Source: an uncultured Bacillota bacterium
Lineage (GTDB): Bacteria; Bacillota_I; Bacilli_A; RFN20; CAG-288
Direction of reading: 5' to 3'
DNA length: 64,000 nucleotides
NCBI GenBank assembly: GCA_949284445.1
Contig: CASDVP010000007.1
Coordinates: 19,107-83,106 of the forward strand
In this document: piece after piece, positions 1 to 47,723 of the stretch
Position numbering within the stretch: the first letter of the stretch is position 1
How the letters are laid out: every line of letters begins with the position of its first letter
Translations under genes and position numbers: made by a program
The notes under the pieces: generated by a model
What the model was told of the DNA's origin: nothing
The model's input: the letters and a program-made list of their open reading frames with translations, nothing else
Databases searched by the model: none

Positions 1-1589
1 AGGTTGTATTAGGTGACTTTGTCAAGACTCCGATCATTCCTAAAGGAGAGACTAAACCTGTTACTTTAACTCTGAAAGTCCAGGATATGGCATCTTATGA
101 TTATTCTGATGCAAACGAAAATGGTTTTGCAACTTACGAATTAGATCCAGGAGATTATCAGATCAGTTTAAGAAAGAATGCCCATGAGGTTATCTCTACT
201 CTAAACTATAAGATCGATGAAGAGTATATCTATGGGACTTCAGTGACTGAACACAAGGTTGAAAACCGTTTTGATGATGTTTCTGAACATATCACTAAAT
301 ACTTATCTCGTTCTGACTGGGAAGGCACTTGGCCGACTAGACCGACTGCTCAAGATCAAGAAGTGACGCAAGAATTCATCAATACTCTCAATTATTCGGT
401 CGATGACAAAGAAACTGATCCTTGGTATTCAAGCACTGCTCCGAATCAGAGCAAAACTCAGCTGACACGTGATCAATGCAAAGTGAAGATCTATCATCTT
501 TTTAATAAAGATTATGATGATCCTTTATGGGATGAACTTTTAGATCAATTGACAGTCAAAGAGATGACGGATATGATCGCAACTGGTAATTTCAGAACTA
601 TCGCTATGGATAATATCAAGAAACCTTTGACGATCGATGGTGATGGACCGATGGGCTTTGCAATCTTTATGGGTGATGATTGTATCTATGATACTTGTCG
701 CTATGCTTCAGAATCAGTCGTCGCTGCTACTTGGAACAAAGAATTAGCTTATAGACAAGGCTTGATGGTCGGAAATGAAGGACTCATCGGAAATGAAAGA
801 GAAGATAGTACACCATATTCAGGCTGGTATGCACCGGCGGTTAATATTCACCGTTCACCTTTCGGTGGAAGAAACTTCGAATATTATTCTGAAGATCCTA
901 TCTTATCTGGAAAATTAGCAGTCGAAGTCATCAAAGGCGCTAAAGAAAAAGGCGTGTATACCTATATCAAACACTTTGCCTTAAACGAACAAGAAACTAA
1001 TCGCGATACTTCTGGTTTAGTGGTTTGGGCTAATGAACAGGCTATGCGAGAACTCTATTTTAAACCGTTTGAATTAGCAGTCGTCGAAGGTAAGACTTCA
1101 GCCATGATGTCTTCGTTTACCCGTATAGGTACGACTTGGGCAGGAGGCTGTTATGAATTATTGACTGAAGTTTTAAGAGAAGAATGGGGATTTAAAGGCA
1201 TGGTCATCACTGATTTCAACCTCAAAGCTTACATGAACACTGATCAGATGATCAGAGCAGGTGGTGATTTAAACTTATCACCTTCTAAGGCTCCGACAAA
1301 AACTTCTACTCCTACTGATATCACCAATATCAGAAGAGCGGCTAAAAATATTTTGTACACTGTCGCTAATTCAAATGCGATGAATGGTCAAGATGATTCA
1401 GTTATCTATGGATATAGACTACCAGGTTGGGTCACGCTCCTCATCGTTATCGATTCCGTGTTTGCAGCTGGAGCGCTTGCTTTAGGTGGTTTATGGTTTT
1501 TCTTCAAAATGCAGAATAAACAATTGAGGTTAGAAGGTGAACAAAACGAAACTGAGAAAGGAGAAACAGAAACAAATGAACAAAATTAA
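1..1589 (+). CDS. Glycoside hydrolase family 3 (beta-glucosidase/beta-hexosaminidase-like), 5'-truncated by the window edge. C-terminal TM anchor plus acidic/Lys-rich tail.
   Basis: The reading frame is open from nt 3 with no stop, so the Met at 87 is internal. The translation carries GH3 catalytic-barrel motifs (KHFALNEQE; GFKGMVITDF with the Asp nucleophile context). It is paralogous to the ORFs at 42882..45842 and 48530..51385, for example shared ...LTSYDY... and WYAP.VNIHRSPF.GRN.EYYSEDP. The last ~50 aa are hydrophobic (GWVTLLIVIDSVFAAGALALGGLWFFF). Confidence 0.8.
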   Translation, partial: VVLGDFVKTPIIPKGETKPVTLTLKVQDMASYDYSDANENGFATYELDPGDYQISLRKNAHEVISTLNYKIDEEYIYGTSVTEHKVENRFDDVSEHITKYLSRSDWEGTWPTRPTAQDQEVTQEFINTLNYSVDDKETDPWYSSTAPNQSKTQLTRDQCKVKIYHLFNKDYDDPLWDELLDQLTVKEMTDMIATGNFRTIAMDNIKKPLTIDGDGPMGFAIFMGDDCIYDTCRYASESVVAATWNKELAYRQGLMVGNEGLIGNEREDSTPYSGWYAPAVNIHRSPFGGRNFEYYSEDPILSGKLAVEVIKGAKEKGVYTYIKHFALNEQETNRDTSGLVVWANEQAMRELYFKPFELAVVEGKTSAMMSSFTRIGTTWAGGCYELLTEVLREEWGFKGMVITDFNLKAYMNTDQMIRAGGDLNLSPSKAPTKTSTPTDITNIRRAAKNILYTVANSNAMNGQDDSVIYGYRLPGWVTLLIVIDSVFAAGALALGGLWFFFKMQNKQLRLEGEQNETEKGETETNEQN

Positions 1590-2247
1590 AAAGATCAGTT
1601 GCGGTGCGTTGATGTTGTTAGCAGGATTATCACTCGTCGGTTGTACTGAAACTTCATCCGTCGATAGCGGTGTATTTTCAACACCTTTACCCACAGGTGT
1701 GAATGAATATGTCATGGAAGCTGAATACATCGACTTAACTGATGTCAAGGGTGCCGGATTATCTAGTGAACAATCCGGTGTCGATATGATTTATGGCGAT
1801 GGAACTGATGCTCAAAAAGAATTAGGTTGGAGTGAAGGCTACTATATCGGTTATACCTATAGTATTCAGACTAAATTAGATTTTGTTTTCACAGCTACAA
1901 CTGCTGAGACAGCGACTTTTGTCTTGAGACTAGGCTCTGAATTAGGAGATTTGAATATCACTCCTGATGATATGGAAGTCGCTTTAAATGGTGAACCTAT
2001 CAGCTACGGAAGCATATATGTTGCTAATAGTGAATCAATGGCTCAGATGAAGTTCTATGACAAAACTTGCGGAACTAATTTGAACCTTAAACAAGGCGAA
2101 AACACTTTGTCTATCAGCATCAAGGAAAATAGCCTTCGTGGAAATGGAACAGGTGGTCCTTGCATCGATTGCATCAAGATTCAAACTAAGGCAGAAGTAA
2201 AATACACAGCTCACACTGATAATCCAAGTAAACGTGGACAAATCTAA
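1576..2247 (+). CDS. Surface lipoprotein with a C-terminal beta-sandwich domain, putative carbohydrate-binding.
   Basis: The signal peptide has a lipobox (LLAGLSLVGC). GAAAGGAG lies 12 nt before the ATG at 1576, so I prefer that start over the track start at 1537, which overlaps the upstream gene by more than 50 nt. The C-terminal region (..LNGEPI..NLKQGENTL..GGPCIDCIKI) resembles the C-terminus of the 41841..42857 protein. Confidence 0.6.
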   Translation: MNKIKKISCGALMLLAGLSLVGCTETSSVDSGVFSTPLPTGVNEYVMEAEYIDLTDVKGAGLSSEQSGVDMIYGDGTDAQKELGWSEGYYIGYTYSIQTKLDFVFTATTAETATFVLRLGSELGDLNITPDDMEVALNGEPISYGSIYVANSESMAQMKFYDKTCGTNLNLKQGENTLSISIKENSLRGNGTGGPCIDCIKIQTKAEVKYTAHTDNPSKRGQI

Positions 2248-4449: not shown

Positions 4450-4645
4450 AACAGACCTCGTTAATCATATTCAAAGCAACTGATATTAAGTCTAAATGAC
4501 TTTTATATTATATAGAAATTATCGTTTGTATTCAAATTGTAAAGAACTTTTTATTATCAGTTATTTATGTATTTACAAATAAAATAAATTATCATATTAC
4601 AAATTTATAGCTATGCGGTATACTATTAAAAAAGAGGAGAGATAT

Positions 4646-5620
4646 ATGAAAAAATCTATCTTATATTTATGTTTGCCGTTACTGCTTTTAGGTTTAAGCT
4701 CTTGTGATTCTACTGGTGGTGGTTCTGACACTACCAATACCAAACCTATCAGTGGTACTAATAACAGCAGTGGAACGACTGAAAAACAAGCTGAAGATTT
4801 CACGATTAAAACTTCAGATAATGGCTTGTCTGCTGATACAAGCAGTTATACTTTTGCTAATGCTGAAGAAGGTGATGATTATCCAGATGCCGTTATCGCT
4901 TTGACAACTGATCAAACTTGGCTTCATTGCACGGGACTCAACGAAAACTACACCAAAATCATCATCGAAGATGAAACTGTTTTACCGAAGGATTCGGTCA
5001 CGATGCATACGGTCTTAAACAGAGATATCGTCGGTGCTAGTGGTTCAAATGATATCGACGGCATCAATTTGATCTTAGATAGAAAATTGATAAAGCCTGG
5101 TGATAGTAAATTAAAATTACAAGTCAGACCGTCAAATGGAAGCTCTTCTATCGCTAAGACAACCACTATTTGTGTAGATGTTCATGTCAAAGAATTCGGC
5201 ACGATTATGGTTGATACTTATGATGTTGATGTCAAAGTCAATCTTGATGGCTTAGCTGACACGATTAAAAAAGAATCTGAAAATCCTACCTCTATAACAT
5301 TAAGTATCACTGATTCATCAGATAGAGAAGAAGTTTATGGCTATTCTGCTGATTATAGTTCTCAAACTGATATTCCGTTAGCTGAGATCCCTGCTGAAAT
5401 CAGTGTATCTGACATCAAATATGCAGTAGGTCATACCTACAAAATGTTTATTTTTGTAGAAGGTGAAAAAGTCAGTGATAGAATTTGGCTTTCACTCAAA
5501 GCAAGTTCCACCACTGATGGCTATTCAATCAGATCTGAAAGTGCTAGTCAAAGCATTTTAGAAGTCACTAAAGACGGAGTCACTGTTGAAGCTGAAATAG
5601 ATACTTATCTAGCTTTATAA
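4646..5620 (+). CDS. Surface lipoprotein, hypothetical.
   Basis: AAGAGGAGAG RBS before the ATG at 4646. Signal peptide with lipobox LLLGLSSCDS. Ser/Thr/Gly-rich linker. Confidence 0.6.
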   Translation: MKKSILYLCLPLLLLGLSSCDSTGGGSDTTNTKPISGTNNSSGTTEKQAEDFTIKTSDNGLSADTSSYTFANAEEGDDYPDAVIALTTDQTWLHCTGLNENYTKIIIEDETVLPKDSVTMHTVLNRDIVGASGSNDIDGINLILDRKLIKPGDSKLKLQVRPSNGSSSIAKTTTICVDVHVKEFGTIMVDTYDVDVKVNLDGLADTIKKESENPTSITLSITDSSDREEVYGYSADYSSQTDIPLAEIPAEISVSDIKYAVGHTYKMFIFVEGEKVSDRIWLSLKASSTTDGYSIRSESASQSILEVTKDGVTVEAEIDTYLAL

Positions 5621-5839: not shown

Positions 5840-7612
5840 ATGAAAATGGATAAATTAGTCATTAATCTTAAAAGAATTCTTGAACTGAGGAATATACCTT
5901 ATAAACAGTTCTTAGTGGATATTTGTAGAGAAATTTTAGCTAATGAACCGACAAAATCAGAAAATACATGTTACGAAATGGCTGAAAAAGAAAAAGCTAA
6001 CTTTTCCAATATGCTTAAAGGCGCTAGACCGCTTAGTAAGGCTTTCTATATTCCGATAGAAAAAGTGCTCGGTATATCTCTAGCTTCAATTTGTGATGGA
6101 ACTTTTGAGAAAGGGCTATTTATAAATAAAGGGCTACGTTATACAGCTAGCTTAGATGATTATCAAAAATATTGTGAGCTATTTGAGGAAAAGAGCAATG
6201 ACCATGAAGTCATAAGAGAAGTATGGCAAAATTATGATGAATATGACAATAATCTTTTGACGTATATTTTACAATATCAGTCTTTAGAAGGCTTAAAAGC
6301 TTTGCATGATAAAAAGGGTGCTAAAGTTGATTACTGTAATACACATTTGAATATATTAAATGGCTTTAAAGATGAAGTTTCTGATATTCTCAGTCTTATT
6401 TGTTCAAAGGATTCAGATGAGGTTTTTAATCAATATTTTGATATTTATCAGACATTCATAGACAATTCGTTTGATAAAGATTGGCTTGGGTTGCTGTCAG
6501 ATGAAAAAAATATGGACCAAATCTTAAAAGCCCAGAAAATATTATCAAGTATTCTTAATGACAGAAAAGTCAAAGTTAGTGAGCTCAATCCACGAAGAGG
6601 GATTAATGATGAAAAAGAAGTTATGATAGCAAGTCCATATATCTATTATCTTTTGAACTTTGCACTTAAACATTGTGATACCTATTTAGAACAAGCAAAA
6701 CAGATGATTCGTCATGGAATTTCTTACAATAAAAAGCTGAATAAGTTTTTAGAAAATAATACTGATTATTCTTATTGTAGAATAGAGGATAATGGGACCA
6801 TTTATAATGGCGTCTTGCTTTATGGAAATATCATTACTTATAAACTGGAGACTCAGACAAATTTTGATCATGAAATAGAAATGCTACTAGATGATTTGAA
6901 TAAAACTATCAATGAGATAAAGTTTTATGATAAGCCTAAGACAGGTGGTCTCTCATTAAAAGGTGTAAGAATTGTAAATGGAAATTTATTGAAAGCTCAT
7001 TCTGGCAATGAAGTCGAATATGAGTTCTTACAAAAAGTTGAAAAATATGATTTACCATTCATTCCTAAGCTGATATCGGTTAACGATAAATTCGATACTT
7101 TTACCTATTTTAAAGGAAATTCTTTAAGCTATGATTACACAGATTCTTGTTCTTTAGAAATTATTAAACAAGTCATAGAAGCCATCAAAAAGAAAGATGA
7201 AGTTTCAAAGGAAATTCTTGGCAATAATAAAGTGTATGTCCATGCTGATCTTTCTCTTAGAAATATGATTTTTGATAAAAATGAGTTTGTTGGATTTATT
7301 GATTGGGATACTGCACATATCGGTGATGAAAGTGAGGATCTTATATATTCTATTTGGCAACTTTTAAATATAGGTAGTCTAACGAGAAATAATAATTTAT
7401 TGTATGATCGATTTAAGCAAGCAATATCTTTTTATAAACCTTCAAAGGAGCTCAAACATAATTTTGCTGATAAGATGATCCTAGTTATGAATAATGTCAT
7501 CAAAGGAACTTCAAACGATAATCCTAATTATCAACGCATATATGAATGGGTAGGTTGGAGCAAGATTTGGGTTGAATTATTTAGAGATAAGATTAAGCAG
7601 GATATCGGATGA
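5840..7612 (+). CDS. Fusion protein: N-terminal XRE-type HTH, a central helical region, and a C-terminal APH/CotS-like kinase fold (phosphotransferase family).
   Basis: The N-terminus (LKRILELRNIPYKQFLVDI...NMLKGARPLSKAFYIPIEKVLGISL) looks like an HTH_XRE domain. The C-terminus carries a Brenner-type catalytic loop (VHADLSLRNMIF) and an IDWD/DFG-equivalent (GFIDWDTAHIGDESEDL), as in aminoglycoside/choline kinase-like enzymes. The stop overlaps the next gene by 4 nt. Confidence 0.6.
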   Translation: MKMDKLVINLKRILELRNIPYKQFLVDICREILANEPTKSENTCYEMAEKEKANFSNMLKGARPLSKAFYIPIEKVLGISLASICDGTFEKGLFINKGLRYTASLDDYQKYCELFEEKSNDHEVIREVWQNYDEYDNNLLTYILQYQSLEGLKALHDKKGAKVDYCNTHLNILNGFKDEVSDILSLICSKDSDEVFNQYFDIYQTFIDNSFDKDWLGLLSDEKNMDQILKAQKILSSILNDRKVKVSELNPRRGINDEKEVMIASPYIYYLLNFALKHCDTYLEQAKQMIRHGISYNKKLNKFLENNTDYSYCRIEDNGTIYNGVLLYGNIITYKLETQTNFDHEIEMLLDDLNKTINEIKFYDKPKTGGLSLKGVRIVNGNLLKAHSGNEVEYEFLQKVEKYDLPFIPKLISVNDKFDTFTYFKGNSLSYDYTDSCSLEIIKQVIEAIKKKDEVSKEILGNNKVYVHADLSLRNMIFDKNEFVGFIDWDTAHIGDESEDLIYSIWQLLNIGSLTRNNNLLYDRFKQAISFYKPSKELKHNFADKMILVMNNVIKGTSNDNPNYQRIYEWVGWSKIWVELFRDKIKQDIG

Positions 7613-8955
7613 TGAAAAACAGTATCAAAAAAATATTTCAAAACCTAAAATATTTTGATTGGCATTTATATTTTGTACTTATATTTGTCGCTTTATTTCC
7701 TGCTATTTTACAAACAGTCAGAACCTATTTCTTATCTTCGGCGATTGATGTCAGTGAGTTTGATATTTTAGGTCAAATGGAATGGTTTGACCTTTTCAAT
7801 GAATGTATCATCGCAATGTTGATCATTCCTTTATATTCCATACTTAATACGTTTTTAAAAAATGATTCTGATCTTTTTCCAAAGCAAGTATTTAAAGCAG
7901 GAATCACTGTCGTTATTGTTTATGGTGCATTTTCAGGAATCATGTATGCATATGCAAAAAATGTGGTCAGATTTATGAATCCTGATGAATTCAAAATCGA
8001 TCAAATTGTCAGCTATCTAAATATGGAAACAATCGCATTTGTGCTTGGCATCATCATTCAATTTGCAAATGTCTGTTTTATCATTCTAGGAAAAACACAA
8101 AATTTCTACATTTATACTATATTAAATTCTATTCTTCTCATTTTTACTGATTATTTGTTAATTCCCAATTACGGCGTAAATGGTGTCGCTTATTCAAACA
8201 TCGCAATTAATGGTGTGCTTGCTATAGGGATGATTGTCTTATTGGTGTCAGAACATAAAATTCAGCCAAGCTGGTTTGATAAAAAAGATAAGAAAATGTA
8301 TAGCGATTGGGCAAAGATAGGTAGTGCCTCTTTATTTCAATCCGTTTTGGACAATTTGATCTATATTCTAATGGTCGTAAAAATGGTTAATTCGGCATCT
8401 AGTGCTGGCAATTATTGGATAGCTAATAACTTCATTTGGTTATGGCTTTTAATCCCTGTTACAGCACTAGCCGAGATCATTAGAAAAGATTGCATAAACG
8501 GATATAACGGTTTGAAACAGAGCAATTATTATATGATATTATGCTTTATATTTATTATATGGCTTTATTTAATTCCTTCCTGGAAGCCATTCTTTCAAAA
8601 TGTAGAAAAATTGGAGAACTATTCTGAAATTTATGATATCACGTTTAAATTGTTTTGGTTTTATATTGCTTATGCTCTTTCTGTAGTTCCGGATAATATT
8701 TTTATTGGTTTAGGAAAAACTAAATATTCATTTCTTAATTCTTTTGTAGTCAATGTCATCTATTATGGTATTTTCTATTTGGCATATGTGACAACCGGTT
8801 TTAAGATGACAATTGATATCATCATCATGATGTTTGGATTTGGGATGGTAGTCCATTTGATTGTTAGTCTTCTTGAAGAAAAGATACTCTTAGTAAAAGA
8901 GTTACGTAACTCGAACAATAAGGAGGAGAATAACCTATTCATAAAAGGGGGTTAA
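7609..8955 (+). CDS. Polytopic membrane protein of the MOP (MATE/Wzx/MurJ-like) exporter superfamily.
   Basis: 448 aa with roughly 12 predicted TM segments. It contains the GVNGVAYSNIAINGVLAIGM motif. An ATGA overlap with the upstream kinase-like gene suggests translational coupling. Confidence 0.5.
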   Translation: MMKNSIKKIFQNLKYFDWHLYFVLIFVALFPAILQTVRTYFLSSAIDVSEFDILGQMEWFDLFNECIIAMLIIPLYSILNTFLKNDSDLFPKQVFKAGITVVIVYGAFSGIMYAYAKNVVRFMNPDEFKIDQIVSYLNMETIAFVLGIIIQFANVCFIILGKTQNFYIYTILNSILLIFTDYLLIPNYGVNGVAYSNIAINGVLAIGMIVLLVSEHKIQPSWFDKKDKKMYSDWAKIGSASLFQSVLDNLIYILMVVKMVNSASSAGNYWIANNFIWLWLLIPVTALAEIIRKDCINGYNGLKQSNYYMILCFIFIIWLYLIPSWKPFFQNVEKLENYSEIYDITFKLFWFYIAYALSVVPDNIFIGLGKTKYSFLNSFVVNVIYYGIFYLAYVTTGFKMTIDIIIMMFGFGMVVHLIVSLLEEKILLVKELRNSNNKEENNLFIKGG

Positions 8956-9276: not shown

Positions 9277-10491
9277 TTAGATTGTTTTCAATATATTTTC
9301 ATTTAATAAGAAATCAAAAATGTTTATCATCTTATATCCTTTTTCTAATCTAGTAAAAGGATTGTCATCAGCTGTTATGATCACTTTTTTATATCCATCA
9401 TCTAACCCTTTAAATGCTGATAATTCTCTTTCTTTAGTGTCAGGATCTTCAATGGTTAAAGAAATTTGAATATAGTATTGGTCATCAGATGTTTTTACAA
9501 CAAAGTCGATCTCTTTGGAATTATTTTTTCCAATATCAACTACGTAATTACGTCTGATAAGCTCTAAAAAAACTAAATTTTCTAAAATGTGTGTCATTTC
9601 AATTTGACGAAAATTGATCTTTTCATTTCTTAAACCTAAATCACATGCATAATATTTGTTCAGTGTTTTTAGATATTCTTTTCCTTTTAAGTCATATCTA
9701 GAAGTTTTATAAAATAAGAAACTATCGCAGATATACTTCAAATAATAGGAAATAGTTTCATTATTGACTGTCTTATAATTATTTGATTTCAAAGTATTTG
9801 CAATCTTGTTAGGGGAGACAACAGATCCTACCTGTGAACATAGTAATTCTAATAATGAATTAAATAATGAGGCATTTTTAATTTTGTTTCGTTCAACTAT
9901 ATCTTTAAAACCGATTGTTTCATTCAGCATTTTTAAATAATCGATTTTTTCATAAGCCTTATCTAATGTGGATATATATGGCATTCCACCATACATGATA
10001 TATTCTTTGAAGGTTTGCTTTATATCCCCACCTCTATGATCATAAAACTCTTTAAAAGATAGGGGATATACTTTTATTTCAATCCCTTTTCCACGCAATT
10101 TGGTATTTATTTCACTAGAAAGAAGCTTGGAATTAGAGCTGGTAATGTATAAATCGCAATTGAAATCGATTTTAATACCGTTGACTAAGTCTTCAAAATT
10201 ATCGATCAATTGAATTTCATCGATGAAAATATAATATTTGTTATCATCGATGATGCGTTTATTGATGTAATCATATAAAGCATTTATGTTTCTGAGATTT
10301 GTAAACTTATTGGATTCTAAATTTATTGATATAATGTGATTTTTATCGATGCCACTATCAATCAGATATTTATAGTATATTTCAAATAGTAAATAAGATT
10401 TTCCACAGCGTCTTATCCCAGTGATTATTTTTACGATGTCTTTATCTTTGTAGTCTATTAATTTTGAAAGTAACAGATCTCTTTTGATCAT
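9277..10491 (-). CDS. AAA+ ATPase of the COG1373 type (AAA_14 N-domain plus a DUF4143-like C-domain).
   Basis: Walker A GIRRCGKS and Walker-B-like YIFIDEIQ. The C-terminal EIDFVVKT...YYIQIS segment is typical of the DUF4143 restriction-endonuclease-like region. Confidence 0.7.
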   Translation of the reverse strand: MIKRDLLLSKLIDYKDKDIVKIITGIRRCGKSYLLFEIYYKYLIDSGIDKNHIISINLESNKFTNLRNINALYDYINKRIIDDNKYYIFIDEIQLIDNFEDLVNGIKIDFNCDLYITSSNSKLLSSEINTKLRGKGIEIKVYPLSFKEFYDHRGGDIKQTFKEYIMYGGMPYISTLDKAYEKIDYLKMLNETIGFKDIVERNKIKNASLFNSLLELLCSQVGSVVSPNKIANTLKSNNYKTVNNETISYYLKYICDSFLFYKTSRYDLKGKEYLKTLNKYYACDLGLRNEKINFRQIEMTHILENLVFLELIRRNYVVDIGKNNSKEIDFVVKTSDDQYYIQISLTIEDPDTKERELSAFKGLDDGYKKVIITADDNPFTRLEKGYKMINIFDFLLNENILKTI

Positions 10492-10518
10492 AATGTAATC
10501 CTCATTGATAATATTATA

Positions 10519-10559
10519 ACCGCAAAACTTTTAAATTTAAAAACTTTTGCGGTTATATT
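10519..10559. repeat. Perfect palindrome/hairpin (ATAACCGCAAAA - loop - TTTTGCGGTTAT). Probable terminator for the upstream ATPase gene and repeat partner of 9238..9276.
   Basis: 12-bp inverted repeat with a 17-nt AT loop, downstream of the 10745..12184 minus-strand gene. Confidence 0.6.
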
Positions 10560-10744
10560 TGCAACTTATATCAAGTGCTAGATATTCTTTTCTCCATTAT
10601 TTTGTAGTCAAGCTTATATATTATGATGCTTTTTATCTGATATCTTACGATGGACTTTTGCACACCCTTTTATTTCTAATTTTTTTAAATCTGTTATGAC
10701 AATATTTATTAATTGATTTTGAAATTGGTTTTCCAAATAAATTT

Positions 10745-12184
10745 CTATTTTAATGGTTTTAACATCGTCTTTAAATCGATCAAATGAAGCCTATGATCAG
10801 CAACTTTTCTTAAAGAACTATCGAATCCATTTGCTCCGAACAAATAGAACTCAACATTTTTGTAATTTGATAGAGATGGTACAGATATATCTTCACACAT
10901 ATCTTTATAGTCTTGATAAGTTCTTTCCTGTTTAGAAAATTTTGATTTTCCGATAAGTAAATTATCACCAGCAGTACCGACAATATCTAGCTCTATACTT
11001 CTTCCTAAATTTTTACTATTTATATTCAAATTTTCAAATTGTTGGTAGAAAGTTTGTAGTCTTCCTTTTTTATTAAGAAAATTTAGATAAGTCATGCATT
11101 CTTTCTCGAAAGCATGTTCTATAAATTCTTTTATAGCATTTTCGTATTGCTTTCTTATGACTTTTCCAGCTCCGCTTTTAATCCATTCAACATTTCCTCT
11201 AATAAAGCGATAAAAGAATGCCATCATTTGATCAAAAATTTCATAGTGAACATCTCTTTTAGAATGAAAAGAAGATCTTCTAATCAACACGTTATCTTCG
11301 ACAAGTTGAGATACATATTTAGTTATTTTGCTACTATCTTCTGAAAAAAAGAGACTTAGATCTTTTATAGTATCATAGCCTTCACTAATAGCTTTGATGA
11401 TTGAAGCATATAAGCCACCAGTTGCTACATCAGAGGTAATAACTTTGCTAGGATCGTCTGCAAAAATAGCAGTTCTATCAAAAAAGAGACGATTCATATT
11501 GTCGTTGAAACTCTTGCTAGTATCTATCAGTGAAAGATAATATGGGAATGTGTTAGTCAATGCTAAAAACTTAGCTTTTTCCAAAAGATCTTTCACATCG
11601 GATAATGCTGAGATAGCTTCATCAAATTCAAATTTGTTTAGTAATAGTTGAAAGGTGTTTCTTTTGTAAAGAGGTGCCTTACTATCTTGAATTTCTTTTT
11701 CCATAAATGAAACATTACTTCCAGTTAGAATAAGAGTGAATTTTCCTTTTCTAAATAACATATCTATAGCTTTTTGAAGCGAAGAAGTGAAATCAGTTTT
11801 CTTTCTTTTGCCGTCTCTAGTCAGAATGAGATTCGGATATTCATCAATGACTAAAAGTCCTTTTTCATCCCCAAAATATTCGTTTACACTTTCAAAAAAT
11901 GCATTCCAATCTGTATATACTCCACTAGAATAACCTAAAAGCCTATTTAATTCTCTAGAGAAAACTAATCTATTATCAAGATCTTCACTATCAGTTGCAA
12001 AAAGAAAGAGTGATTTTTCCCCTTCAGCTAGCATTTGCATCAAAGTTGTTTTACCGATTCTTCTTTGCCCATAGACATATCCAAATTCAAAACGATCACT
12101 ATCATAAAAACTATTAAGCAATTTAAGTTCTTCTTTTCTTCCATAATATCTTTTCATACAGCAACTCCTATCAGAATATGTCAT
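10745..12184 (-). CDS. AAA+ ATPase of the COG1672 type (Arch_ATPase N-domain plus a DUF234-like C-domain).
   Basis: Walker A GQRRIGKTT and Walker B LLVIDEYPNL. C-terminal ..IELDIVGTAGDNLLIGKSKF, as in the DUF234 PD-(D/E)xK-like region. The true start is probably the internal Met (MKRYYGRKEEL). Confidence 0.7.
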   Translation of the reverse strand: MTYSDRSCCMKRYYGRKEELKLLNSFYDSDRFEFGYVYGQRRIGKTTLMQMLAEGEKSLFLFATDSEDLDNRLVFSRELNRLLGYSSGVYTDWNAFFESVNEYFGDEKGLLVIDEYPNLILTRDGKRKKTDFTSSLQKAIDMLFRKGKFTLILTGSNVSFMEKEIQDSKAPLYKRNTFQLLLNKFEFDEAISALSDVKDLLEKAKFLALTNTFPYYLSLIDTSKSFNDNMNRLFFDRTAIFADDPSKVITSDVATGGLYASIIKAISEGYDTIKDLSLFFSEDSSKITKYVSQLVEDNVLIRRSSFHSKRDVHYEIFDQMMAFFYRFIRGNVEWIKSGAGKVIRKQYENAIKEFIEHAFEKECMTYLNFLNKKGRLQTFYQQFENLNINSKNLGRSIELDIVGTAGDNLLIGKSKFSKQERTYQDYKDMCEDISVPSLSNYKNVEFYLFGANGFDSSLRKVADHRLHLIDLKTMLKPLK

Positions 12185-30432: not shown

Positions 30433-31944
30433 ATGGCATATAAAGTGAGTGGAATTGCATTACCTATTTTTTCTCTTCCTTCTAATTATGGAATTGGAAC
30501 GATAGGTTGTGAAGCAAAGAGATTCATCGACTTCTTAGCTGATTCAGGTTTCAGCTATTGGAGCATCCTACCTTTAGGTCCTACTTCCTTTGCTGACTCC
30601 CCCTTCCAATGCTTTAGCGCTAGAGCGTTAAACCACTACTTCATCGATTTAGATGATCTCATCGAAAAGGACTTACTTAAAAAGAGAGACTTAGAAAGCT
30701 TCATGTGGTGTGAAGATGAGAGGGAAGTCGACTATCATCTCATTTACACAAACAGAAACAAAGTCCTGAAAAAAGCATTCAATCGCTTTAAAAGAGGAAA
30801 TGGGGATTATTGGCGCGGATACACTTCATTTCTCAGAAAAAATGAATTTCTCGATTATGCTTGCTTCATGGTCTTAAAGGAACTTAATAAAGGTAAGCCT
30901 TGGCCGAAATTTGAGAAAGGCTACGATGAGTATTCCTTCAAAGCATTTAAGAAGATCAAGCACCAGTACTGGAATGAAGTTGAGTTCTATCTTTGGACTC
31001 AATACATCTTCTTAAAACAGTGGAATTCCTTGAAAAAATATGCTGCTGAAAGAGGGATAAAAATCATCGGTGAAGAACCCTTCTATGTCGCATTCGATTC
31101 GATAGATGTCTATAAACATCATCGTAACTTTAAACTCAACAGCCATAATCAAATGGAAAAGGTCGGAGGATATCCACCTGATTGTTTCTCACCTGATGGA
31201 CAAGTTTGGGGATCTCCTATCTATGACTTTGATTATATGGCTAAACACGATTATCGCTTCTTTAAAAATCGTCTGAACTTCTCTTTAAATCTTTATGATC
31301 AAGTCATTTTGAATCATTTTCGTGGTTTCTTCAATTACTATGCTCTTAATGCAGATAGTAAAAATGGTTTAAATGGTGAGTTCTATCAAGGACCTGGTGC
31401 CTTGATGTGTGACGCCTTAGTGAAAGATCATACCGATAAGATCATTGCCGAACACGTCGGCTATTCTTCTCCGCTCATCGAAGAATTCTTAGAAAAGAGA
31501 CAGGTTCCTGAGATCAGCGTCCTGGAGTTTTCTTTAGCTGATCAAGATAACTTTCCTCTACCTGAAGACTATCCTTATCAGACCATCGTCTATTCGACAA
31601 GACATGATAACGAGCCGTTATGCAGCTATATCTTCTCTTTAACTGCTGAAGAAAAGATGCATATGCGCTCTATCTTAGATAAGAGCTGTTATCAGTTAGG
31701 GGTGAGATTAGTCGATGATTCGATCGAAGGCTGGTGTAAAACGATTTTGGAATTAGGATTAGCTTCCCAAGCTAAATTGATGATCATCAACATGCCTGAT
31801 TTGTTATTAGAAACTCATAGCGGAAGGATCAATACTCCTAATACTATCACCAACAATTGGACTTATCGAATAGGTAAGAATGACTTGACTAAAGAATTGA
31901 GTCAAAAATTAAAACGACTCAATCACTATTATGGACGCATATAA
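30433..31944 (+). CDS. malQ: 4-alpha-glucanotransferase (amylomaltase, GH77).
   Basis: N-terminal SGIALPIFSLPSNYGIGTIG...FSYWSILPLGPT and DSPFQCFSARALNHYFIDLD are typical of GH77. Confidence 0.85.
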   Translation: MAYKVSGIALPIFSLPSNYGIGTIGCEAKRFIDFLADSGFSYWSILPLGPTSFADSPFQCFSARALNHYFIDLDDLIEKDLLKKRDLESFMWCEDEREVDYHLIYTNRNKVLKKAFNRFKRGNGDYWRGYTSFLRKNEFLDYACFMVLKELNKGKPWPKFEKGYDEYSFKAFKKIKHQYWNEVEFYLWTQYIFLKQWNSLKKYAAERGIKIIGEEPFYVAFDSIDVYKHHRNFKLNSHNQMEKVGGYPPDCFSPDGQVWGSPIYDFDYMAKHDYRFFKNRLNFSLNLYDQVILNHFRGFFNYYALNADSKNGLNGEFYQGPGALMCDALVKDHTDKIIAEHVGYSSPLIEEFLEKRQVPEISVLEFSLADQDNFPLPEDYPYQTIVYSTRHDNEPLCSYIFSLTAEEKMHMRSILDKSCYQLGVRLVDDSIEGWCKTILELGLASQAKLMIINMPDLLLETHSGRINTPNTITNNWTYRIGKNDLTKELSQKLKRLNHYYGRI

Positions 31945-32003
31945 CTTTGAAATTATTAGAGACGTATAGCAGTTGAGACTTTTATTTACAGGAGGAAAAA
32001 ATT

Positions 32004-33278
32004 ATGAAAAAAGTCACAAAAATCAGTTCCTTAGTCGCTCTCTCTTTATTGATGTTAGCCGGTTGTAATGGGGGGGGTGATTCCACCACAAAGCAAGATA
32101 ACTCCAAATACAACTGGACGATCACTGTTTCTTCACCAGTAGAACAAACTGCCTTTATTACTGAACAATGCAACAATTTCAAAGAAGAGAATGGTTATAC
32201 GAATGTCAAATTCAACTTTGTCAACTATCCAGAAGGTGAAGTCGATACCAAAGTCGCTGATTGGTCAGCGACCAGTGCACCTGATGTTTATGCGTTTGCA
32301 TCTGATAAGACTTTAAGCTTAGTACAAAAGGGTGCGTTAGCCCGTGTTCCTTCTAATTTCCAATCTCAAATGACGAAAGATATGACTTCTGGTGCTATCG
32401 ATGCCGGAAAATTAGGCGATAATATGTATGCATATCCCTATGCTGGTGATAACGGTTATTTCTTATATATCAACACTGACTTTGTCTCAGTAGACCAAGC
32501 TGCTAAGGTAGAAGATATCATCGCTGCTTGTGAGGAAAAAGGAGTCAAATTCGGTTATCCATTAGGCGAAGCTTTCTATTCGATGGCAATGTTGACCACC
32601 TTCGGTGCTTCTTATACTGTCAAGATGAACGATGATTACTCTAATGTCAGCAGTATTGAAGCTTCTTATGATACCGAGGATGGTTTACAAGCTGCTAAAG
32701 GCTTCCGTGATCTGATCAATAATCCTAACGTCATGACTGGTAATGCTAATGATGTGTTAAAAGCTCCTACTCAAGCTAACGGTTTAGGCGCTATTGTCGG
32801 TGGTTCTTGGAATGCTGCTGATTTTGAAGAAGCTGTCGGTAAAGATAAATTAGTCGCTTTGAAGATGCCGACTATCACTGTTGATAATGAGACTAAGACG
32901 CTTCGTTCGTTCTTGGGTTATAAATTATATGGTGTTAATCCTCAAGTGAGTAAAGAAGATACTGCTAGATTAGCTTTCGATCACTCTTTAGCCAATTATT
33001 TAGTCGGTGCTAAAGTTCAAGAGAATCGCTTTGATACTTTCTCAACCGCTCCTACCAATACGACCGTCGCTAAAATGTCTAAAGTCACTAATAACCAATA
33101 TGTCAAAGCTATCAATGATCAAGCTAATGATGCTATTGCTCAAACTATTGTCCCTCAAGGTCTTTGGGATTCTCCTAAGGCTTTATACGATGGTATCAAA
33201 GCAGGAACGATCAGCACTGACCAACAATTACAAGAAGCTTTGACTGCTTTGAATACTGCTGTAGAAACTTCCAAATAA
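32004..33278 (+). CDS. Lipoprotein sugar ABC-transporter substrate-binding protein (maltose/maltodextrin-binding-like).
   Basis: Lipobox LLMLAGC, then GGG encoded by a poly-G tract. The fold is MalE-like (cluster B SBP) and the gene sits directly upstream of two sugar permease genes. Confidence 0.8.
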   Translation: MKKVTKISSLVALSLLMLAGCNGGGDSTTKQDNSKYNWTITVSSPVEQTAFITEQCNNFKEENGYTNVKFNFVNYPEGEVDTKVADWSATSAPDVYAFASDKTLSLVQKGALARVPSNFQSQMTKDMTSGAIDAGKLGDNMYAYPYAGDNGYFLYINTDFVSVDQAAKVEDIIAACEEKGVKFGYPLGEAFYSMAMLTTFGASYTVKMNDDYSNVSSIEASYDTEDGLQAAKGFRDLINNPNVMTGNANDVLKAPTQANGLGAIVGGSWNAADFEEAVGKDKLVALKMPTITVDNETKTLRSFLGYKLYGVNPQVSKEDTARLAFDHSLANYLVGAKVQENRFDTFSTAPTNTTVAKMSKVTNNQYVKAINDQANDAIAQTIVPQGLWDSPKALYDGIKAGTISTDQQLQEALTALNTAVETSK

Positions 33279-33335
33279 TGATTTTATAAGGATAGCGGAT
33301 TTTTCCGCTATCCTTTTCTTCCTTAAGGAGGATTT

Positions 33336-34916
33336 ATGGATAATAGAGAACAAGTGGTCGCTAATCAATTAGAATATCTTTCCTTATCTAAGCCGCAGAG
33401 AGCACTATATAAGATCAGTCATTTCTTTCTTGATCTGCCTAAAAGAGTGATGGCATCACTGAGAAGGATTCCTGGCAAGACTAGAAGAGTAAAACAATCT
33501 GCAGAAGGCATCTTTTCATCTATCTATCACGCAGGTAAAGAAGGTGATTATAAAACCCGACTCTCTTTTATTTTAATGGGTTTTGGATTGGTCACTAGGA
33601 ACCAGATTTTACGAGGCGCTTTTTATTTTTTATATGAGGTTTTTTTCATCGTTTTCATGTGCTTATTAGGTGGAAGCTCTCTAGCTTCTTTACCGTTTTT
33701 AGGACAGATAGGTCGTGTCACTTACACCGTTATCGATCCTGATTTTTTGATCGATGTCGAAACCACTGCCTATTATGATAATTCTTTTACGATTCTCTTG
33801 TTTTCAATCATCACTATCGCATTGATATTGATCTTAGTTTTTCTCTGGTATAACCAGTTAAAAGACAGTTTGAGATTACAGAGATTGAGTTATATCGGAA
33901 GAAAAGCATCTGATAAAGAATCATTTAAAAACATCTTCGATAAAAGCTATGAGAAGACGCTTTTATTCTTACCGATGTCAGGTCTCATCCTATTTACAAT
34001 CATCCCGATTATCATCATGATTTTGATCGGATTTACAAACTATAATTCCGCCCATTTGACACCTACTAATCTCTTCGATTGGGTGGGTTTATATAATTTT
34101 GAAGAGCTGTTTTCTACCGGAGCATCCACTAATAACAACATTTTCTTAGAAGTTTTTGGTCAGGTGCTATTGTGGACTTTAGTCTGGGCATTTTTTGCGA
34201 CGTTTTCCAATTACTTTTTAGGGATGATCATGGCTATGATCATCAATATCAAAGGCATCAAACTAAAAAAGGTGTGGAGAACTATTTTGATTTCAACGAT
34301 CGCGGTTCCACAATTCATCTCGCTATTATTAGTCTCTTATATTTTCTCTGATTATGGTGTTGTCAATGGAATACTGACTTCTTTAGGCTTGGTTTCCGGT
34401 CGAGGAATACCATTCCTATCTGATGCCTTACTAGCTAAAGTGATGATCATCTTGATCAACACTTGGGTCGGAATTCCATACACGATGCTCATCTGCTCTG
34501 GTCTATTGATGAATATTCCTGATGATCTATATGAATCTGCCCGAATCGATGGCGCTTCACCATTAAAGATGTATATCAAGATTACACTCCCTTATATGTT
34601 ATTTGTCACTACACCTTATTTGATTTCTCAATTCGTGGGTAATATCAACAACTTCAATGTCATTTATTTATTGACTTCTGGCGGACCGGCATTTTCTTAT
34701 CCAGTCGCTGATGTTCCTTATCAAGTCTCATCAACGGGCGTCGGTCATACTGATTTGCTCATCACTTGGATCTATAAGATGACAGTCACTTCTAATTCTA
34801 AAGACTACGGAGCTGCTTCAGTCATCGGTATGCTCATCTTCGCGGTTGTCGCCGTCATCTCTTTGATCTTCTACAACCGTTCTAATTCTGTGAAAAATGA
34901 GGAGGAATTCCAATGA
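33336..34916 (+). CDS. Sugar ABC transporter permease, MalF-like with a long N-terminal region.
   Basis: 526 aa with multiple TM segments. EAA loop YESARIDGASPLKMYIKITLPYM. Confidence 0.85.
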   Translation: MDNREQVVANQLEYLSLSKPQRALYKISHFFLDLPKRVMASLRRIPGKTRRVKQSAEGIFSSIYHAGKEGDYKTRLSFILMGFGLVTRNQILRGAFYFLYEVFFIVFMCLLGGSSLASLPFLGQIGRVTYTVIDPDFLIDVETTAYYDNSFTILLFSIITIALILILVFLWYNQLKDSLRLQRLSYIGRKASDKESFKNIFDKSYEKTLLFLPMSGLILFTIIPIIIMILIGFTNYNSAHLTPTNLFDWVGLYNFEELFSTGASTNNNIFLEVFGQVLLWTLVWAFFATFSNYFLGMIMAMIINIKGIKLKKVWRTILISTIAVPQFISLLLVSYIFSDYGVVNGILTSLGLVSGRGIPFLSDALLAKVMIILINTWVGIPYTMLICSGLLMNIPDDLYESARIDGASPLKMYIKITLPYMLFVTTPYLISQFVGNINNFNVIYLLTSGGPAFSYPVADVPYQVSSTGVGHTDLLITWIYKMTVTSNSKDYGAASVIGMLIFAVVAVISLIFYNRSNSVKNEEEFQ

Positions 34917-35830
34917 TGGCTGATCTATCTCTAGGAAAAAAGAATTCGCATTATCGTTCTCATAAACGGGCGATTCTCACTAGAAATATCTTCGTTTATA
35001 TCTTTTTAACAGTCATATCTATCATCTGGCTGATCCCGTTTGTATATCTAGTTTTCCAGTCTTTGTCTTCGATATATTCGCCTTCTAATTTCATGCCTTT
35101 TTTACCAACAGAAGAGAATATCGCAAACGGATATCCGGTCTGGACTTTTGATAATTATATCAATCTCTTCACTAACGACAATTATCCGTTCTGGAGATGG
35201 TATCTAAACACTTTTATCATCTCACTAGTGACTATGATCATTCAGACGATCTTGGTGTTAGGCACTTCGTATGCACTGTCTCGTCTGAGATTCAAAGGTC
35301 GTCAAGGGATCATGAGATTGATTTTAGTCTTAGGTATGTTCCCTGGCTTTTTAAGCACGATCATCATCTATTTCACACTGCAATTATTCCATTTGGAGTC
35401 CAATATCTTTTCTTTGATTCTGATCTATATCGCTTCTTCTGCGATGCAGTATTACATTGCTAAAGGATTCTTTGATACGATACCTAAATCACTGGATGAA
35501 GCTGCTATGATCGACGGAGCTAATAAGAATACAATTTTCTTTAAAATCATCATGCCTTTATCTAAACCGATCATTGTCTACACTCTGCTCATCTCTTTCA
35601 CAGCACCTTGGGGTGATTTTATGACCGCCTCTTATATCGCAGGTGGAAACCCGAGCATGATGACAGTCGCTGTCGGTTTACAACAGATGATCACTTTGAC
35701 ACAGAGAGTTCAGATGTTCCCAACTTTCTGCGCTGGTGGTGTCGTAGTCGCTATCCCAATCATGGCTTTATTCTTCTGGTTACAGAAGTATTATGTTGAA
35801 GGAATCACTGGTGGAGCAGTCAAAGGATGA
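34913..35830 (+). CDS. Sugar ABC transporter permease, MalG-like.
   Basis: EAA loop DEAAMIDGANKNTIFFKIIMPLSKP. ATGA overlap with the upstream gene. Confidence 0.85.
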   Translation: MMADLSLGKKNSHYRSHKRAILTRNIFVYIFLTVISIIWLIPFVYLVFQSLSSIYSPSNFMPFLPTEENIANGYPVWTFDNYINLFTNDNYPFWRWYLNTFIISLVTMIIQTILVLGTSYALSRLRFKGRQGIMRLILVLGMFPGFLSTIIIYFTLQLFHLESNIFSLILIYIASSAMQYYIAKGFFDTIPKSLDEAAMIDGANKNTIFFKIIMPLSKPIIVYTLLISFTAPWGDFMTASYIAGGNPSMMTVAVGLQQMITLTQRVQMFPTFCAGGVVVAIPIMALFFWLQKYYVEGITGGAVKG

Positions 35831-37434: not shown

Positions 37435-37447
37435 GAGGGTATTTTTT

Positions 37448-41422: not shown

Positions 41423-41450
41423 TCGCTTTTATCATTTCATATTTTATAAA

Positions 41451-41490: not shown

Positions 41491-41640
41491 TAAATCCCTT
41501 TAAAAATACTACAGATTGTCAAAAGTGCATTCTTTATATAATTTAATTATTTTTAAGTTGACTGTGCCCAATCATTGATTTAGAATAATCAAGAAAGGGG
41601 TTTCAACGCTTATTCAAACCATGGAAAGGAAATTATTTAC

Positions 41641-47719: not shown

Positions 47720-47723
47720 GATT

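Follow-up and report, generated by a model that had tools for sequence, protein, structure and literature searches.

Introduction

Surface glycan-binding proteins of the SusE/SusF type (SGBP-B), which belong to the PULs of Bacteroidota, are lipid-anchored, non-catalytic, all-beta proteins whose genes neighbour those of glycoside hydrolases acting in the same pathway. They consist of an Ig-like N-terminal part followed by one or more CBM-like sandwich domains. In the gpPULs of gut Bacillota, the lipoprotein is an ABC solute-binding protein (SBP), and the enzymes are wall-anchored or secreted. The mechanism of glycan foraging is known for Bacteroidota (Sus-like) and for a few wall-bearing Firmicutes, but not for the abundant uncultured Bacilli and Christensenellales of the gut with small genomes. 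Lipoproteins of Mycoplasma, such as Vaa of M. hominis and P78 of M. fermentans, are known to be phase-variable by homopolymer slippage in the coding region.

Among glycosidases, GlyA1 (5k6l), a broad-specificity beta-glucosidase/xylosidase of animal-gut origin, founded the GH3 subfamily of permuted topology with the domain order ABS-FLD-ABB (PMC5104943). It carries in cis a C-terminal domain predicted to be CBM6/35-like, a module present in only half of the permuted GH3s. Deletion of this module (GlyA1-Ct) lowered the activity 2-18-fold (kcat-type) and left the specificity unchanged, and the module bound none of the tested polysaccharides (PMC5104943). A CBM fold is therefore no proof of glycan binding. 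For cloning and expression, the GlyA1 construct began at residue 2, and neither a transmembrane (TM) segment nor a lipoprotein is mentioned (PMC5104943), suggesting that GlyA1 is soluble and non-anchored.

Here, we describe three gene modules found in the window, i.e., the whole 64-kb stretch of DNA analysed, which originates from an uncultured gut bacterium. In each module, a permuted GH3 gene adjoins a lipoprotein gene. These modules are real and conserved, and they appear to represent an undescribed form of the "surface binding protein plus glycosidase" theme, for which we propose a function below. As the earlier note on this DNA had anticipated in calling them a candidate undescribed system, no description of such pairs was found in the literature, including a search combining GH3, lipoprotein and CBM35. 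The three lipoprotein families, termed LP1, LP2, and LP3, have no match above threshold in Pfam and NCBIfam except for a Big_3 domain in LP2, and three unannotated protein families are thereby defined.

Each GH3 gene in the window adjoins a lipoprotein gene

The window encodes exactly three GH3 enzymes and no others, sharing about 31-37% identity with one another, and one copy each of LP1, LP2, and LP3. Each GH3 gene adjoins a co-oriented lipobox lipoprotein gene with an RBS-bearing junction, either a 14-nt overlap or a gap of 24-25 nt. In module 1 (plus strand), GH3_1 (1..1589, cut by the window start) is followed by LP1 (1576..2247 from its ATG, with an alternative GTG start at 1537), the start of which overlaps the GH3_1 stop by 14 nt, with an AAAGGAG RBS inside the 3' end of GH3_1. 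The order is reversed in module 2 (plus strand), where LP2 (from 41641) precedes GH3_2 (42882..45842) by 24 nt with an AAAGGAG RBS before GH3_2, and in module 3 (minus strand), where LP3 (52496..51411, with an in-frame upstream ATG at 52532) precedes GH3_3 (51385..48530) by 25 nt. All three modules are thus present where the earlier note had placed them.

The N-termini of the lipoproteins, MNKIKK...LSLVGC in LP1, MKKK...TSLISC in LP2, and MKK...SGLTAC in LP3, are basic and then hydrophobic and end in the lipobox signature [LVI][ASTVI][GAS]C, as predicted for Lgt/LspA substrates. The lipobox Cys expected in all three proteins was confirmed in the motifs LVGC, LISC, and LTAC, and it is nearly invariant within each of the three families. 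At least seven lipobox proteins are encoded among the approximately 50 genes of the window, raising the question of whether abundant lipoproteins fall beside GH3 genes by chance or through secretion-related clustering, in which case the adjacency would be meaningless. With about seven lipoproteins among about 50 genes, we estimated the chance of adjacency for all three GH3 genes to be only about 1-2%.

The pairing is conserved in related genomes

LP1 relatives are located directly downstream of a GH3 ORF in 22 of the 23 assessable species-representative genomes and in all five metagenome contexts; one LP1 locus (L024) lacks any GH3 gene within 10 kb. LP3 relatives directly precede a GH3 gene in 3/3 contexts. 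For LP2, a single close relative (58% identity) was examined; its gene sits immediately 5' of a GH3 gene, which it overlaps. An LP2 relative at 33% identity is divergent from its GH3 gene and not co-oriented with it. The adjacency is kept down to 39-45% protein identity and across MAGs labelled as different classes.

The partners are also specific. The GH3s adjoining LP1 are 55-64% identical to GH3_1 as compared with 41-46% for other GH3s, and GH3_1 shares 92% identity with the GH3 preceding LP1 in L001 and L023. Likewise, GH3_2 shares 72% identity with the GH3 that adjoins the LP2 orthologue of L019, and the GH3s after the LP3 orthologues in L012, L014, and L016 are 64-65% identical to GH3_3. 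Judged by these identities, every lipoprotein family is accompanied by a GH3 clade of its own. Because the adjacency is conserved across genomes and specific from family to clade, the pairing is not fortuitous, and chance neighbourhood is effectively refuted, with next to no probability left. The earlier note would have abandoned the modules had the pairs not been co-conserved in related genomes; they are co-conserved with their cognate GH3 clades. Its picture of a two-gene module needs to be widened, however: the pairs hold, but the unit is often larger, as some LP1 relatives show the order GH3-GH3-LP1, and LP3-GH3 is extended by a LytTR regulator and a kinase (see below).

The GH3 enzymes are permuted and membrane-anchored

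All three GH3s are circularly permuted in their Pfam domains, with GH3_C, Fn3-like, and GH3_N in this order (only a part of which is visible in GH3_1). In the 986-residue GH3_2, GH3_C spans residues 75-352, Fn3-like 404-479, and GH3_N 690-863. The 951-residue GH3_3 has the same order, and the GH3_1 fragment (Pfam Glyco_hydro_3, 3e-23, plus Fn3-like) comprises the end of the Fn3-like domain, the GH3_N barrel, a C-terminal TM helix (VTLLIVIDSVFAAGALALG), and a charged tail. The best PDB sequence match of GH3_2 is the permuted beta-glucosidase GlyA1 (5k6l, 2.6e-77), its closest solved relative, and the top matches 5k6l and 5wug both align in the permuted manner. The domain order of an (alpha/beta)6 sandwich, an Fn3-like domain, and an (alpha/beta)8 barrel places the window GH3s in the GlyA1-like subfamily. 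The translations contain the nucleophile Asp motif G-x-V-x-[ST]-D (GMVITDF, GCVLTDW, and GMVITDQ) and the barrel motif KH[FY] as KHF; GH3_1 carries both, with GMVITD as its nucleophile motif. NCBIfam returned only equivalog matches for the GH3s, every one far below its cut-off, and no substrate call is therefore possible.

Both complete enzymes, GH3_2 and GH3_3, have a predicted TM helix at either end, and a C-terminal TM anchor was found in 46 of the 49 distinct GH3 tails from related loci. We considered an Asp residue within the C-terminal TM helix as a possible interaction residue. It occurs in all three GH3s of the window but in only 15 of the 46 related TM tails, and was therefore not used as an argument. 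The window enzymes share with GlyA1 the ABS-FLD-ABB order and the gut origin. Unlike GlyA1, which has its module in cis, they lack the GlyA1-type C-terminal domain and are TM-anchored, and the CBM35-like protein is encoded by a separate lipoprotein gene. A CBM-like domain fused within the long GH3s of relatives was sought as well but not found; their C-terminal extension turned out to be He_PIG-like Ig repeats and a TM helix.

LP1 and the C-terminal domain of LP2 share a CBM35-like fold

The predicted model of LP1, a lipoprotein of 223 aa, is all-beta and consists of a single CBM35/CBM6-like beta-sandwich, with about 50 highly conserved residues forming an additional loop. LP1 shares 15-20% identity with CBM35/CBM6/CBM36 domains without matching any Pfam or CAZy-type profile, and it differs from them by this loop and by being a free-standing lipoprotein instead of an enzyme module. 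Neither LP1 nor LP2 matched the Pfam families CBM_6 and CBM35, and PF14683 matched only weakly, in 13 of 49 relatives. Searches of the PDB with the LP1 sequence and with the LP1 profile (A1) gave nothing meaningful and found no CBM, and the profile of the LP2 domain (A2) matched CBM35 2wz8 weakly (E 0.073). Because the beta-sandwich superimposes on those of CBM35/CBM6 members but comes without a family-profile match, we use the term "CBM35-like fold" and do not assign LP1 to CBM35 or CBM6.

LP2 combines a lipid anchor, an Ig-like region with a Big_3 domain (Pfam, 3.4e-8) and a second similar segment, and, at the C terminus, a CBM-like domain (about 200 aa, ~42261..42854). BLASTP between LP1 and LP2 was not significant (E 0.45), whereas hhalign aligned the A1 and A2 profiles over 115 columns with a probability of 96% and an E-value of 3.7e-9. 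Judging from this profile-profile comparison, LP1 and the C-terminal domain of LP2 are homologous, which bears out the similarity of the C-terminal domains already suspected in the earlier note.

The order of an Ig-like part and then a CBM-like domain in LP2 is reminiscent of SusE/SusF, in architecture only: there is no sequence relationship (no match to the SusE/SusF Pfam families), no SusC/SusD pair (no match to the SusC/SusD Pfam families in the window), and no outer membrane. Moreover, the lipoprotein here is partnered by an exo-type GH3 that is TM-anchored at two sites, with one lipoprotein family per GH3 clade. The SusD half of the SusD/E-like analogy drawn previously fails, as SusD is alpha-helical and TPR-rich and has the TonB-dependent transporter SusC as its genomic neighbour, whereas the LP1 and LP3 models are all-beta and LP2 is made of Big_3 and a beta-sandwich. 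The modules also resemble the clusters of glycoside hydrolases, a regulator, and ABC-transport lipoproteins in Roseburia and Eubacterium, the gpPULs (PMC5320581), from which they differ in that the lipoprotein partners do not have an SBP fold and the GH3 is TM-anchored at both ends.

We consider it probable, though well short of certain, that these operon-like pairs combine a TM-held, extracytoplasmic exo-GH3 with a cognate lipoprotein and that LP1 and LP2 act in trans as a carbohydrate-recognition or enzyme-assisting module. The permuted GH3 would be an extracytoplasmic exo-glycosidase held on the cell membrane by its N- and C-terminal TM helices, and its cognate partner would be non-catalytic and lipid-anchored. 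In modules 1 and 2, the CBM35/CBM6-like beta-sandwich of the partner, borne on an Ig-like stalk in LP2, would supply the module that other GH3s carry in cis. At the surface of the membrane, the partner might capture or orient beta-linked oligo- or polysaccharides, and the adjacent GH3 might trim them to monosaccharide for uptake. From sequence, models, and gene context, we infer glycan binding, physical association with the GH3, co-transcription, and the identity of the substrate. Permuted GH3s without the GlyA1-type C-terminal module may thus receive the module in trans. The uncultured gut lineages would thereby gain a testable surface apparatus made of a bitopic permuted GH3, a cognate lipoprotein of CBM35-like fold, and a conserved regulator.

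Alternatively, the GH3s could depend on the lipoproteins as obligate subunits, structural or activating, which might for instance shape the mobile active-site loop or stabilize the bitopic enzyme as a trans equivalent of GlyA1-Ct, without any independent capture of glycans. The effect of GlyA1-Ct on activity but not on specificity, together with its failure to bind polysaccharides, speaks for such a role (PMC5104943), and so does the strict 1:1 clade-specific pairing with overlapping start and stop codons, which suggests stoichiometric co-synthesis. In addition, the most conserved part of LP1 is a family-specific loop (residues ~59-90) and not a canonical CBM site. On the other hand, 5k6l was absent from the A1 and A2 profile searches at E <= 10, i.e., no sequence link connects LP1 or LP2 with GlyA1-Ct, and the idea of a trans equivalent has only fold class and gene context behind it. 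Two copies of the LP2-type domain are also found in 668-aa lipoproteins encoded immediately before other GH3s, and in L040 the domain is joined to an esterase-like domain; by analogy, this is typical behaviour of freely shuffled CBMs. The Ig-like stalk of LP2 suggests reach away from the membrane instead of tight docking. We regard a purely structural or activating role as rather unlikely and keep recognition in trans as the preferred reading.

A G tract sets the reading frame of LP2

The region 41641..42857, previously taken as one lipoprotein gene, is 1217 nt long and is not a single ORF: LP2 is frameshifted in the window. The signal peptide, the lipobox LISC, and the first mature residues are encoded by 41641..41769 (plus strand), where the frame ends early at a TAG (41767-41769), and the body (~41751..42857), from the Big_3 Ig-like region to the CBM-like domain, lies in a different frame. 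A G7 homopolymer (41740..41746), eight codons past the lipobox Cys, accounts for this frameshift (OFF) state. Near-identical assemblies with G8 encode an intact LP2 of 405 aa, and full-length homologues have 398-414 aa. Among the assemblies, L050, L051, L052, and L054 have G8-TGGT, and the window, L049, L053, and L056 have G7-TGGT; L055 has G7-T and L018 G8-T. Over 8961 bp, a single indel in the G tract is all that separates L052 and L054 from the window. G7 and G8 thus both occur among nine assemblies, with each state found in two allelic backgrounds.

Genomes that are otherwise identical accordingly vary in the length of the tract and hence in the reading frame, as expected for a phase-variable locus, although an assembly error at the homopolymer might produce the same difference. 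The occurrence of G7 and G8 in near-identical assemblies suggests phase variation of LP2, and from these assemblies, as opposed to clonal lineages, we infer ON/OFF switching as a regulatory mechanism. As in the phase-variable lipoproteins of Mycoplasma, a short homopolymer just past the signal peptide and lipobox varies by +/-1 nt and turns the lipoprotein ON or OFF. The LP2 tract, however, is poly-G in a code-11 uncultured gut bacterium, and LP2, which is not a known adhesin or antigen, would bind glycans as the partner of a glycosidase. If true, the switch would make a nutrient-acquisition lipoprotein of a commensal phase-variable, bearing on strain-level heterogeneity in metagenomes. A scan of JGI metagenomes for the second G tract, at 32070-32077, and a plasmid search with module 2 gave no match. 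A promoter-like site (TTGACT-17-TAGAAT, 41558..41586, plus strand, from a consensus scan only) lies upstream of LP2, and a terminator-like hairpin (41407-41428) closes the preceding gene. Because the promoter and terminator scans showed no enrichment over shuffled sequences, both are used descriptively only.

LP3 is a tandem barrel next to a LytTR two-component system

LP3 (361 aa) consists of an orphan beta-barrel domain (about 150 aa) that is present twice in tandem. The internal duplication noticed previously is unambiguous, with 55% identity over 118 aa (E 6e-40). Each repeat is modelled confidently as an all-beta, 8-stranded antiparallel barrel that is lipocalin-like. A Foldseek search of the PDB revealed no close structural relative of LP3, and the LP3 profile (A3) found nothing meaningful in the PDB. 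A CBM-like fold is seen in LP1 and, by homology, in the C terminus of LP2; LP3 is not CBM-like at all. The best structural matches of the repeats, though weak, are the VtrC/ToxS co-receptors, with VtrC as the best analogue, and APCDD1, the ectodomain of which contains tandem beta-barrels (PMC10193966) like the two barrels of LP3.

Immediately downstream of GH3_3 on the minus strand, a LytTR response regulator (48431..47724) is followed by a GHKL histidine kinase (47719..46373; both by Pfam) of the multi-TM HATPase_c_5 type, which lacks an obvious extracellular sensor domain of its own. The four-gene order of LP3, GH3, regulator, and kinase recurs in L014 and L017, and the regulator-kinase pair is found beside GH3 clusters in L005, L010, L012, and L021. 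This arrangement would also agree with the lipoproteins, LP3 above all, being extracellular ligand sensors for the LytTR system that control expression of the GH3 instead of its catalysis. VtrC, a lipocalin-like co-receptor for bile salts, and ToxS serve as such co-component receptors (PMC4933562), and both the conserved gene order and the kinase architecture fit a sensor. As an account of the lipoproteins, we nevertheless judge a sensory role to be improbable. Under recognition in trans, module 3 would contribute a tandem lipocalin-like beta-barrel partner in a four-gene unit with the LytTR two-component system.

A more far-reaching reading, which we put forward only tentatively and as a whole, is that the three orphan lipoprotein families form cognate heteromeric complexes with the doubly anchored permuted GH3s. 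They would constitute a "split CBM/enzyme" surface apparatus serving as the polysaccharide-utilization machinery of small-genome, possibly wall-less gut Bacillota. In it, G8 tracts just past the lipobox Cys would stochastically switch one partner, LP2, and perhaps also the maltodextrin-binding lipoprotein. LP3 would represent a novel ligand-binding fold, built as a tandem barrel, that couples substrate recognition to the LytTR system.

Host and genetic code

The host had been called a Mollicute, an assignment that the sequence does not establish. TGA ends 14 of the 47 long ORFs, and table 11 leaves every GH3 ORF intact. TGA is thus used as a stop, and the organism is not a code-4 mollicute of the Mycoplasma or Spiroplasma type, in which UGA encodes Trp. 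A PrkC-like kinase in the window, a hint only with regard to a cell wall, has 325 aa and no PASTA match. The relatives carry public labels of gut MAGs from Bacilli, Clostridia, Christensenella/Christensenellales, Ca. Coproplasma, and Acholeplasmataceae. Mollicutes of the Acholeplasma type also use code 11, which is compatible with a wall-less lineage of Bacilli.

GH3 enzymes of permuted topology

Translated with table 11, the 64-kb window contains exactly three GH3 glycosidase genes: GH3_1 (..1589, plus strand; its 5' part is lost at the window start), GH3_2 (42882..45842, plus strand; 986 aa) and GH3_3 (51385..48530, minus strand; 951 aa). They share 31-37% pairwise identity and are deep paralogues. 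Because Pfam places GH3_C, an Fn3-like domain and GH3_N in this order in GH3_2 and GH3_3, we assign them a circularly permuted topology, and the partial GH3_1, running from the Fn3-like domain to the GH3_N end, matches the complete pair. Among solved structures the closest relative is GlyA1 (PDB 5k6l, 2.6e-77), a rumen enzyme that is itself permuted. The nucleophile motif G-x-V-[IL]-T-D was found, as was KHF. In GH3_2 and GH3_3 a basic N terminus leads into a hydrophobic helix, and all three enzymes end in a hydrophobic helix (~1431-1487, ~45729-45800 and ~48590-48660) with a short charged tail. Given a helix at each terminus, the catalytic body should be extracellular, with a membrane tether at each end. 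Among related loci, 46 of 49 distinct GH3 tails have the C-terminal TM anchor. An Asp lies within this helix in all three window enzymes (LIVIDSV, AAIDVV, ITVDCL); of 46 related tails, 15 have D here and the rest N, T, A or V.

Conserved pairing of GH3 and lipoprotein genes

The earlier note had described each GH3 as paired with a surface lipoprotein, and such pairs were indeed co-conserved in relatives, for LP1 in 22 of 23 loci and for LP3 in 3 of 3 contexts. The pairing goes beyond chance. LP1 (ATG 1576..2247, plus strand; lipobox LVGC) and GH3_1 overlap by 14 nt at the GH3_1 stop, and the AAAGGAG RBS of LP1 is inside the GH3_1 gene. The search recovered 73 LP1 relatives; apart from one precomputed CBM-like match (P0049, PF14683), they had no name and no Pfam family. 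Taking one genome per species gave 26 loci; with three at contig edges set aside and ORF extents used, LP1 immediately followed a GH3 ORF in all the others but L024. Five independent metagenome contexts (43-87% identity) also show LP1 directly 3' of a permuted GH3, often overlapping its stop codon. An LP2 orthologue at 58% identity overlaps the start of its own GH3, and a relative at 33% adjoins a GH3 in divergent orientation. The neighbouring enzymes correspond as well: GH3s beside LP1 are 55-64% identical to GH3_1 (92% in the closest species), versus 41-46% for the remaining GH3s of those loci, while the GH3 beside the LP2 orthologue is 72% identical to GH3_2 and those beside LP3 orthologues are 64-65% identical to GH3_3.

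The commonest order at LP1 loci is a long GH3 (~1350-1415 aa), the GH3_1 orthologue and LP1; in L005 and L044, LP1 stands between the two enzymes. Since relatives usually have the long GH3 ahead, module 1 is probably a three-gene unit starting beyond the window edge. Clusters in relatives are larger, with a 668-aa lipoprotein ahead of the long GH3 (found in L023, L005 and other loci), the GH3_1 orthologue and LP1. The C-terminal extension of the long GH3 comprises 4-5 He_PIG-like Ig repeats and a TM helix, and in L002 two GH3 units are joined as a single 2367-aa protein.

A CBM-like domain possibly acting in trans

In LP2 the lipid anchor is followed by a Big_3 Ig-like domain, a second segment resembling it, and a sandwich shared with LP1. 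The resemblance of the LP1 and LP2 domains, proposed from sequence inspection, was not significant by BLASTP; it did emerge from family profiles (hhalign probability 96%, E 3.7e-9; LP1 residues 85-203 against LP2 residues 227-365). The invariant residues of the LP1 family include E48-A49-E50-Y51 in the first strand, P195 and D198 in the last, and G59...W85 and G88 in a loop specific to the family. No membership of a CBM family was found at the sequence level; the Pfam 'CBM-like' entry PF14683 was matched weakly by 13 of 49 relatives (best E 4.8e-6). Two LP2-type domains occur, together with Big_2, in 668-aa lipoproteins directly 5' of long GH3s (L027, L029 at 870-2873, L034, and L038 at 3550-5553), and L040 fuses a single copy to an esterase-like domain. 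Such recurrence, in paired copies and an esterase fusion, is typical CBM behaviour.

GlyA1, a broad beta-glucosidase/beta-xylosidase, bears an additional C-terminal domain predicted to be CBM6/CBM35-like; its removal lowers activity 2-18-fold and leaves specificity unaltered, and a comparable domain is present in only about half of the permuted GH3s (PMC5104943). Unlike GlyA1, the window GH3s have a TM helix in place of this domain, and a CBM35-like protein is encoded in an overlapping or adjacent gene rather than in cis. Our best reading, with moderate confidence, is that LP1 and LP2 would provide the accessory sandwich in trans on the membrane surface shared with the GH3, so that beta-linked glycans would be captured or oriented there for an exo-acting enzyme. 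The main rival to this model is that LP1 and LP2 are activating or structural GH3 subunits lacking independent glycan capture.

A putative phase-variable G tract in LP2

The single LP2 gene claimed at 41641..42857 spans 1217 nt, is not divisible by three and proved to occupy two frames. The signal peptide and lipobox LISC (41641..) are out of frame with the body (~41751..42857), which ends 24 nt before GH3_2, a gene with an AAAGGAG RBS. The break is a G7 run (41740-41746), eight codons past the lipobox Cys. We compared eight assemblies with an identical GH3_2 protein and L018, whose LP2 is 98% identical. G8 was found in five assemblies, as G8-TGGT with a 405-aa LP2 in L050, L051, L052 and L054 and as G8-T with an intact LP2 in L018. 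The window and four others have G7 and a broken LP2, as G7-TGGT (L049, L053, L056, window) or G7-T (L055). Over 8961 bp, the G-tract indel is all that separates L052 and L054 from the window. The tract is likely a phase-variable ON/OFF switch, with homopolymer assembly error as the alternative explanation; the OFF state might also lower GH3_2 expression via polarity.

The only other G run of at least six in the window, G8 at 32070-32077, lies directly behind the lipobox Cys (LMLAGC-NGGGDS) of the SBP_bac_8 maltodextrin-operon lipoprotein (32004..33278); about 0.34 runs of G7 or longer are expected by chance. A JGI scan for this tract in other assemblies gave no match. Its post-lipobox position, as in LP2, suggests a general lipoprotein switch in the source organism, and the tracts look like slipped-strand phase variation of surface lipoproteins.

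The starch/maltodextrin operon itself (30433..39985) encodes a GH77 4-alpha-glucanotransferase, the SBP lipoprotein and two permeases, of which the first, at 526 aa, is unusually long. Its further genes specify a GH13 alpha-amylase and an 845-aa MsmK/MalK-like ATPase whose ~470-aa Lys/Glu-rich C-terminal extension has no Pfam match. Three further lipobox proteins (211, 262 and 335 aa; 39996..40631, 40634..41422 and 4613..5620) have no Pfam or NCBIfam family; the two genes between the operon and LP2 are kept in all near-identical assemblies.

LP3 and the adjoining LytTR unit

A gap of 25 nt separates LP3 (52496..51411, minus strand; lipobox LTAC) from the downstream GH3_3, whose RBS is AAGGTGA. 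The internal duplication reported for LP3 was confirmed (55% identity over 118 aa, E 6e-40). LP3 had no sequence match in Pfam, NCBIfam or PDB, and of 1.84 billion cluster representatives an exhaustive profile search retrieved only 46, some of them single-barrel forms of ~180 aa. A search for LP3 relatives recovered 45; in 3 of 3 contexts the gene lies 17-32 nt 5' of a permuted GH3. In L014 and L017, as in the window (46373..48431, minus strand), LP3-GH3 is followed by a LytTR response regulator and a multi-TM HATPase_c_5 (AgrC-like) kinase. This regulator-kinase pair also stands beside permuted-GH3 clusters in L005, L010, L012 and L021, and likely regulates the permuted-GH3 genes. The conserved place of LP3 in this four-gene order and a faint VtrC-like fold allow for a possible sensing role.

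The permuted GH3 subfamily, the CBM35 fold, lipoprotein phase variation and the logic of a surface glycan-binding protein plus hydrolase are already known. Apparently undescribed, by a literature search only partly aimed at the combination of GH3, lipoprotein and CBM35, are the conserved one-to-one association between doubly TM-anchored permuted GH3 clades and three lipoprotein families that lack annotation, the likely move of a CBM-like module from cis to trans, and the LP3 tandem-barrel family.

Source organism and other genes

The label 'Mollicute analogue' is unproven: TGA is a stop, and the relatives, gut MAGs, are variously labelled Bacilli, Clostridia, Christensenella, Ca. Coproplasma (Christensenellales; PMC8035907) and, once, Acholeplasmataceae. 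Because TGA ends 14 of 47 long ORFs, the organism is, as judged from its reading frames, not a code-4 mollicute. The window has Firmicute-type synteny (rpsB-tsf-pyrH-frr-uppS-cdsA-dxr-rseP, plus polC). A PrkC-like Ser/Thr kinase (56659..57636), next to a PP2C phosphatase, RlmN and RsgA, has only 325 aa, and no PASTA or TM region was detected; this is compatible with a wall-less lifestyle, only as a hint. A 574-aa protein (61827..63551, minus strand) combines Endonuclease_I, Big_2 and HL_N-beta domains and is probably a nuclease, secreted or surface-located, as in mollicute-like nutrient scavengers. A low-GC stretch (28-30%; 9277..12184, minus strand, and 5840..8955, plus strand), possibly a mobile or defence island, contains two ATPases (AAA_14/DUF4143 and ATPase_2/DUF234), a 590-aa APH-like kinase-domain protein and a 448-aa ORF without annotation.
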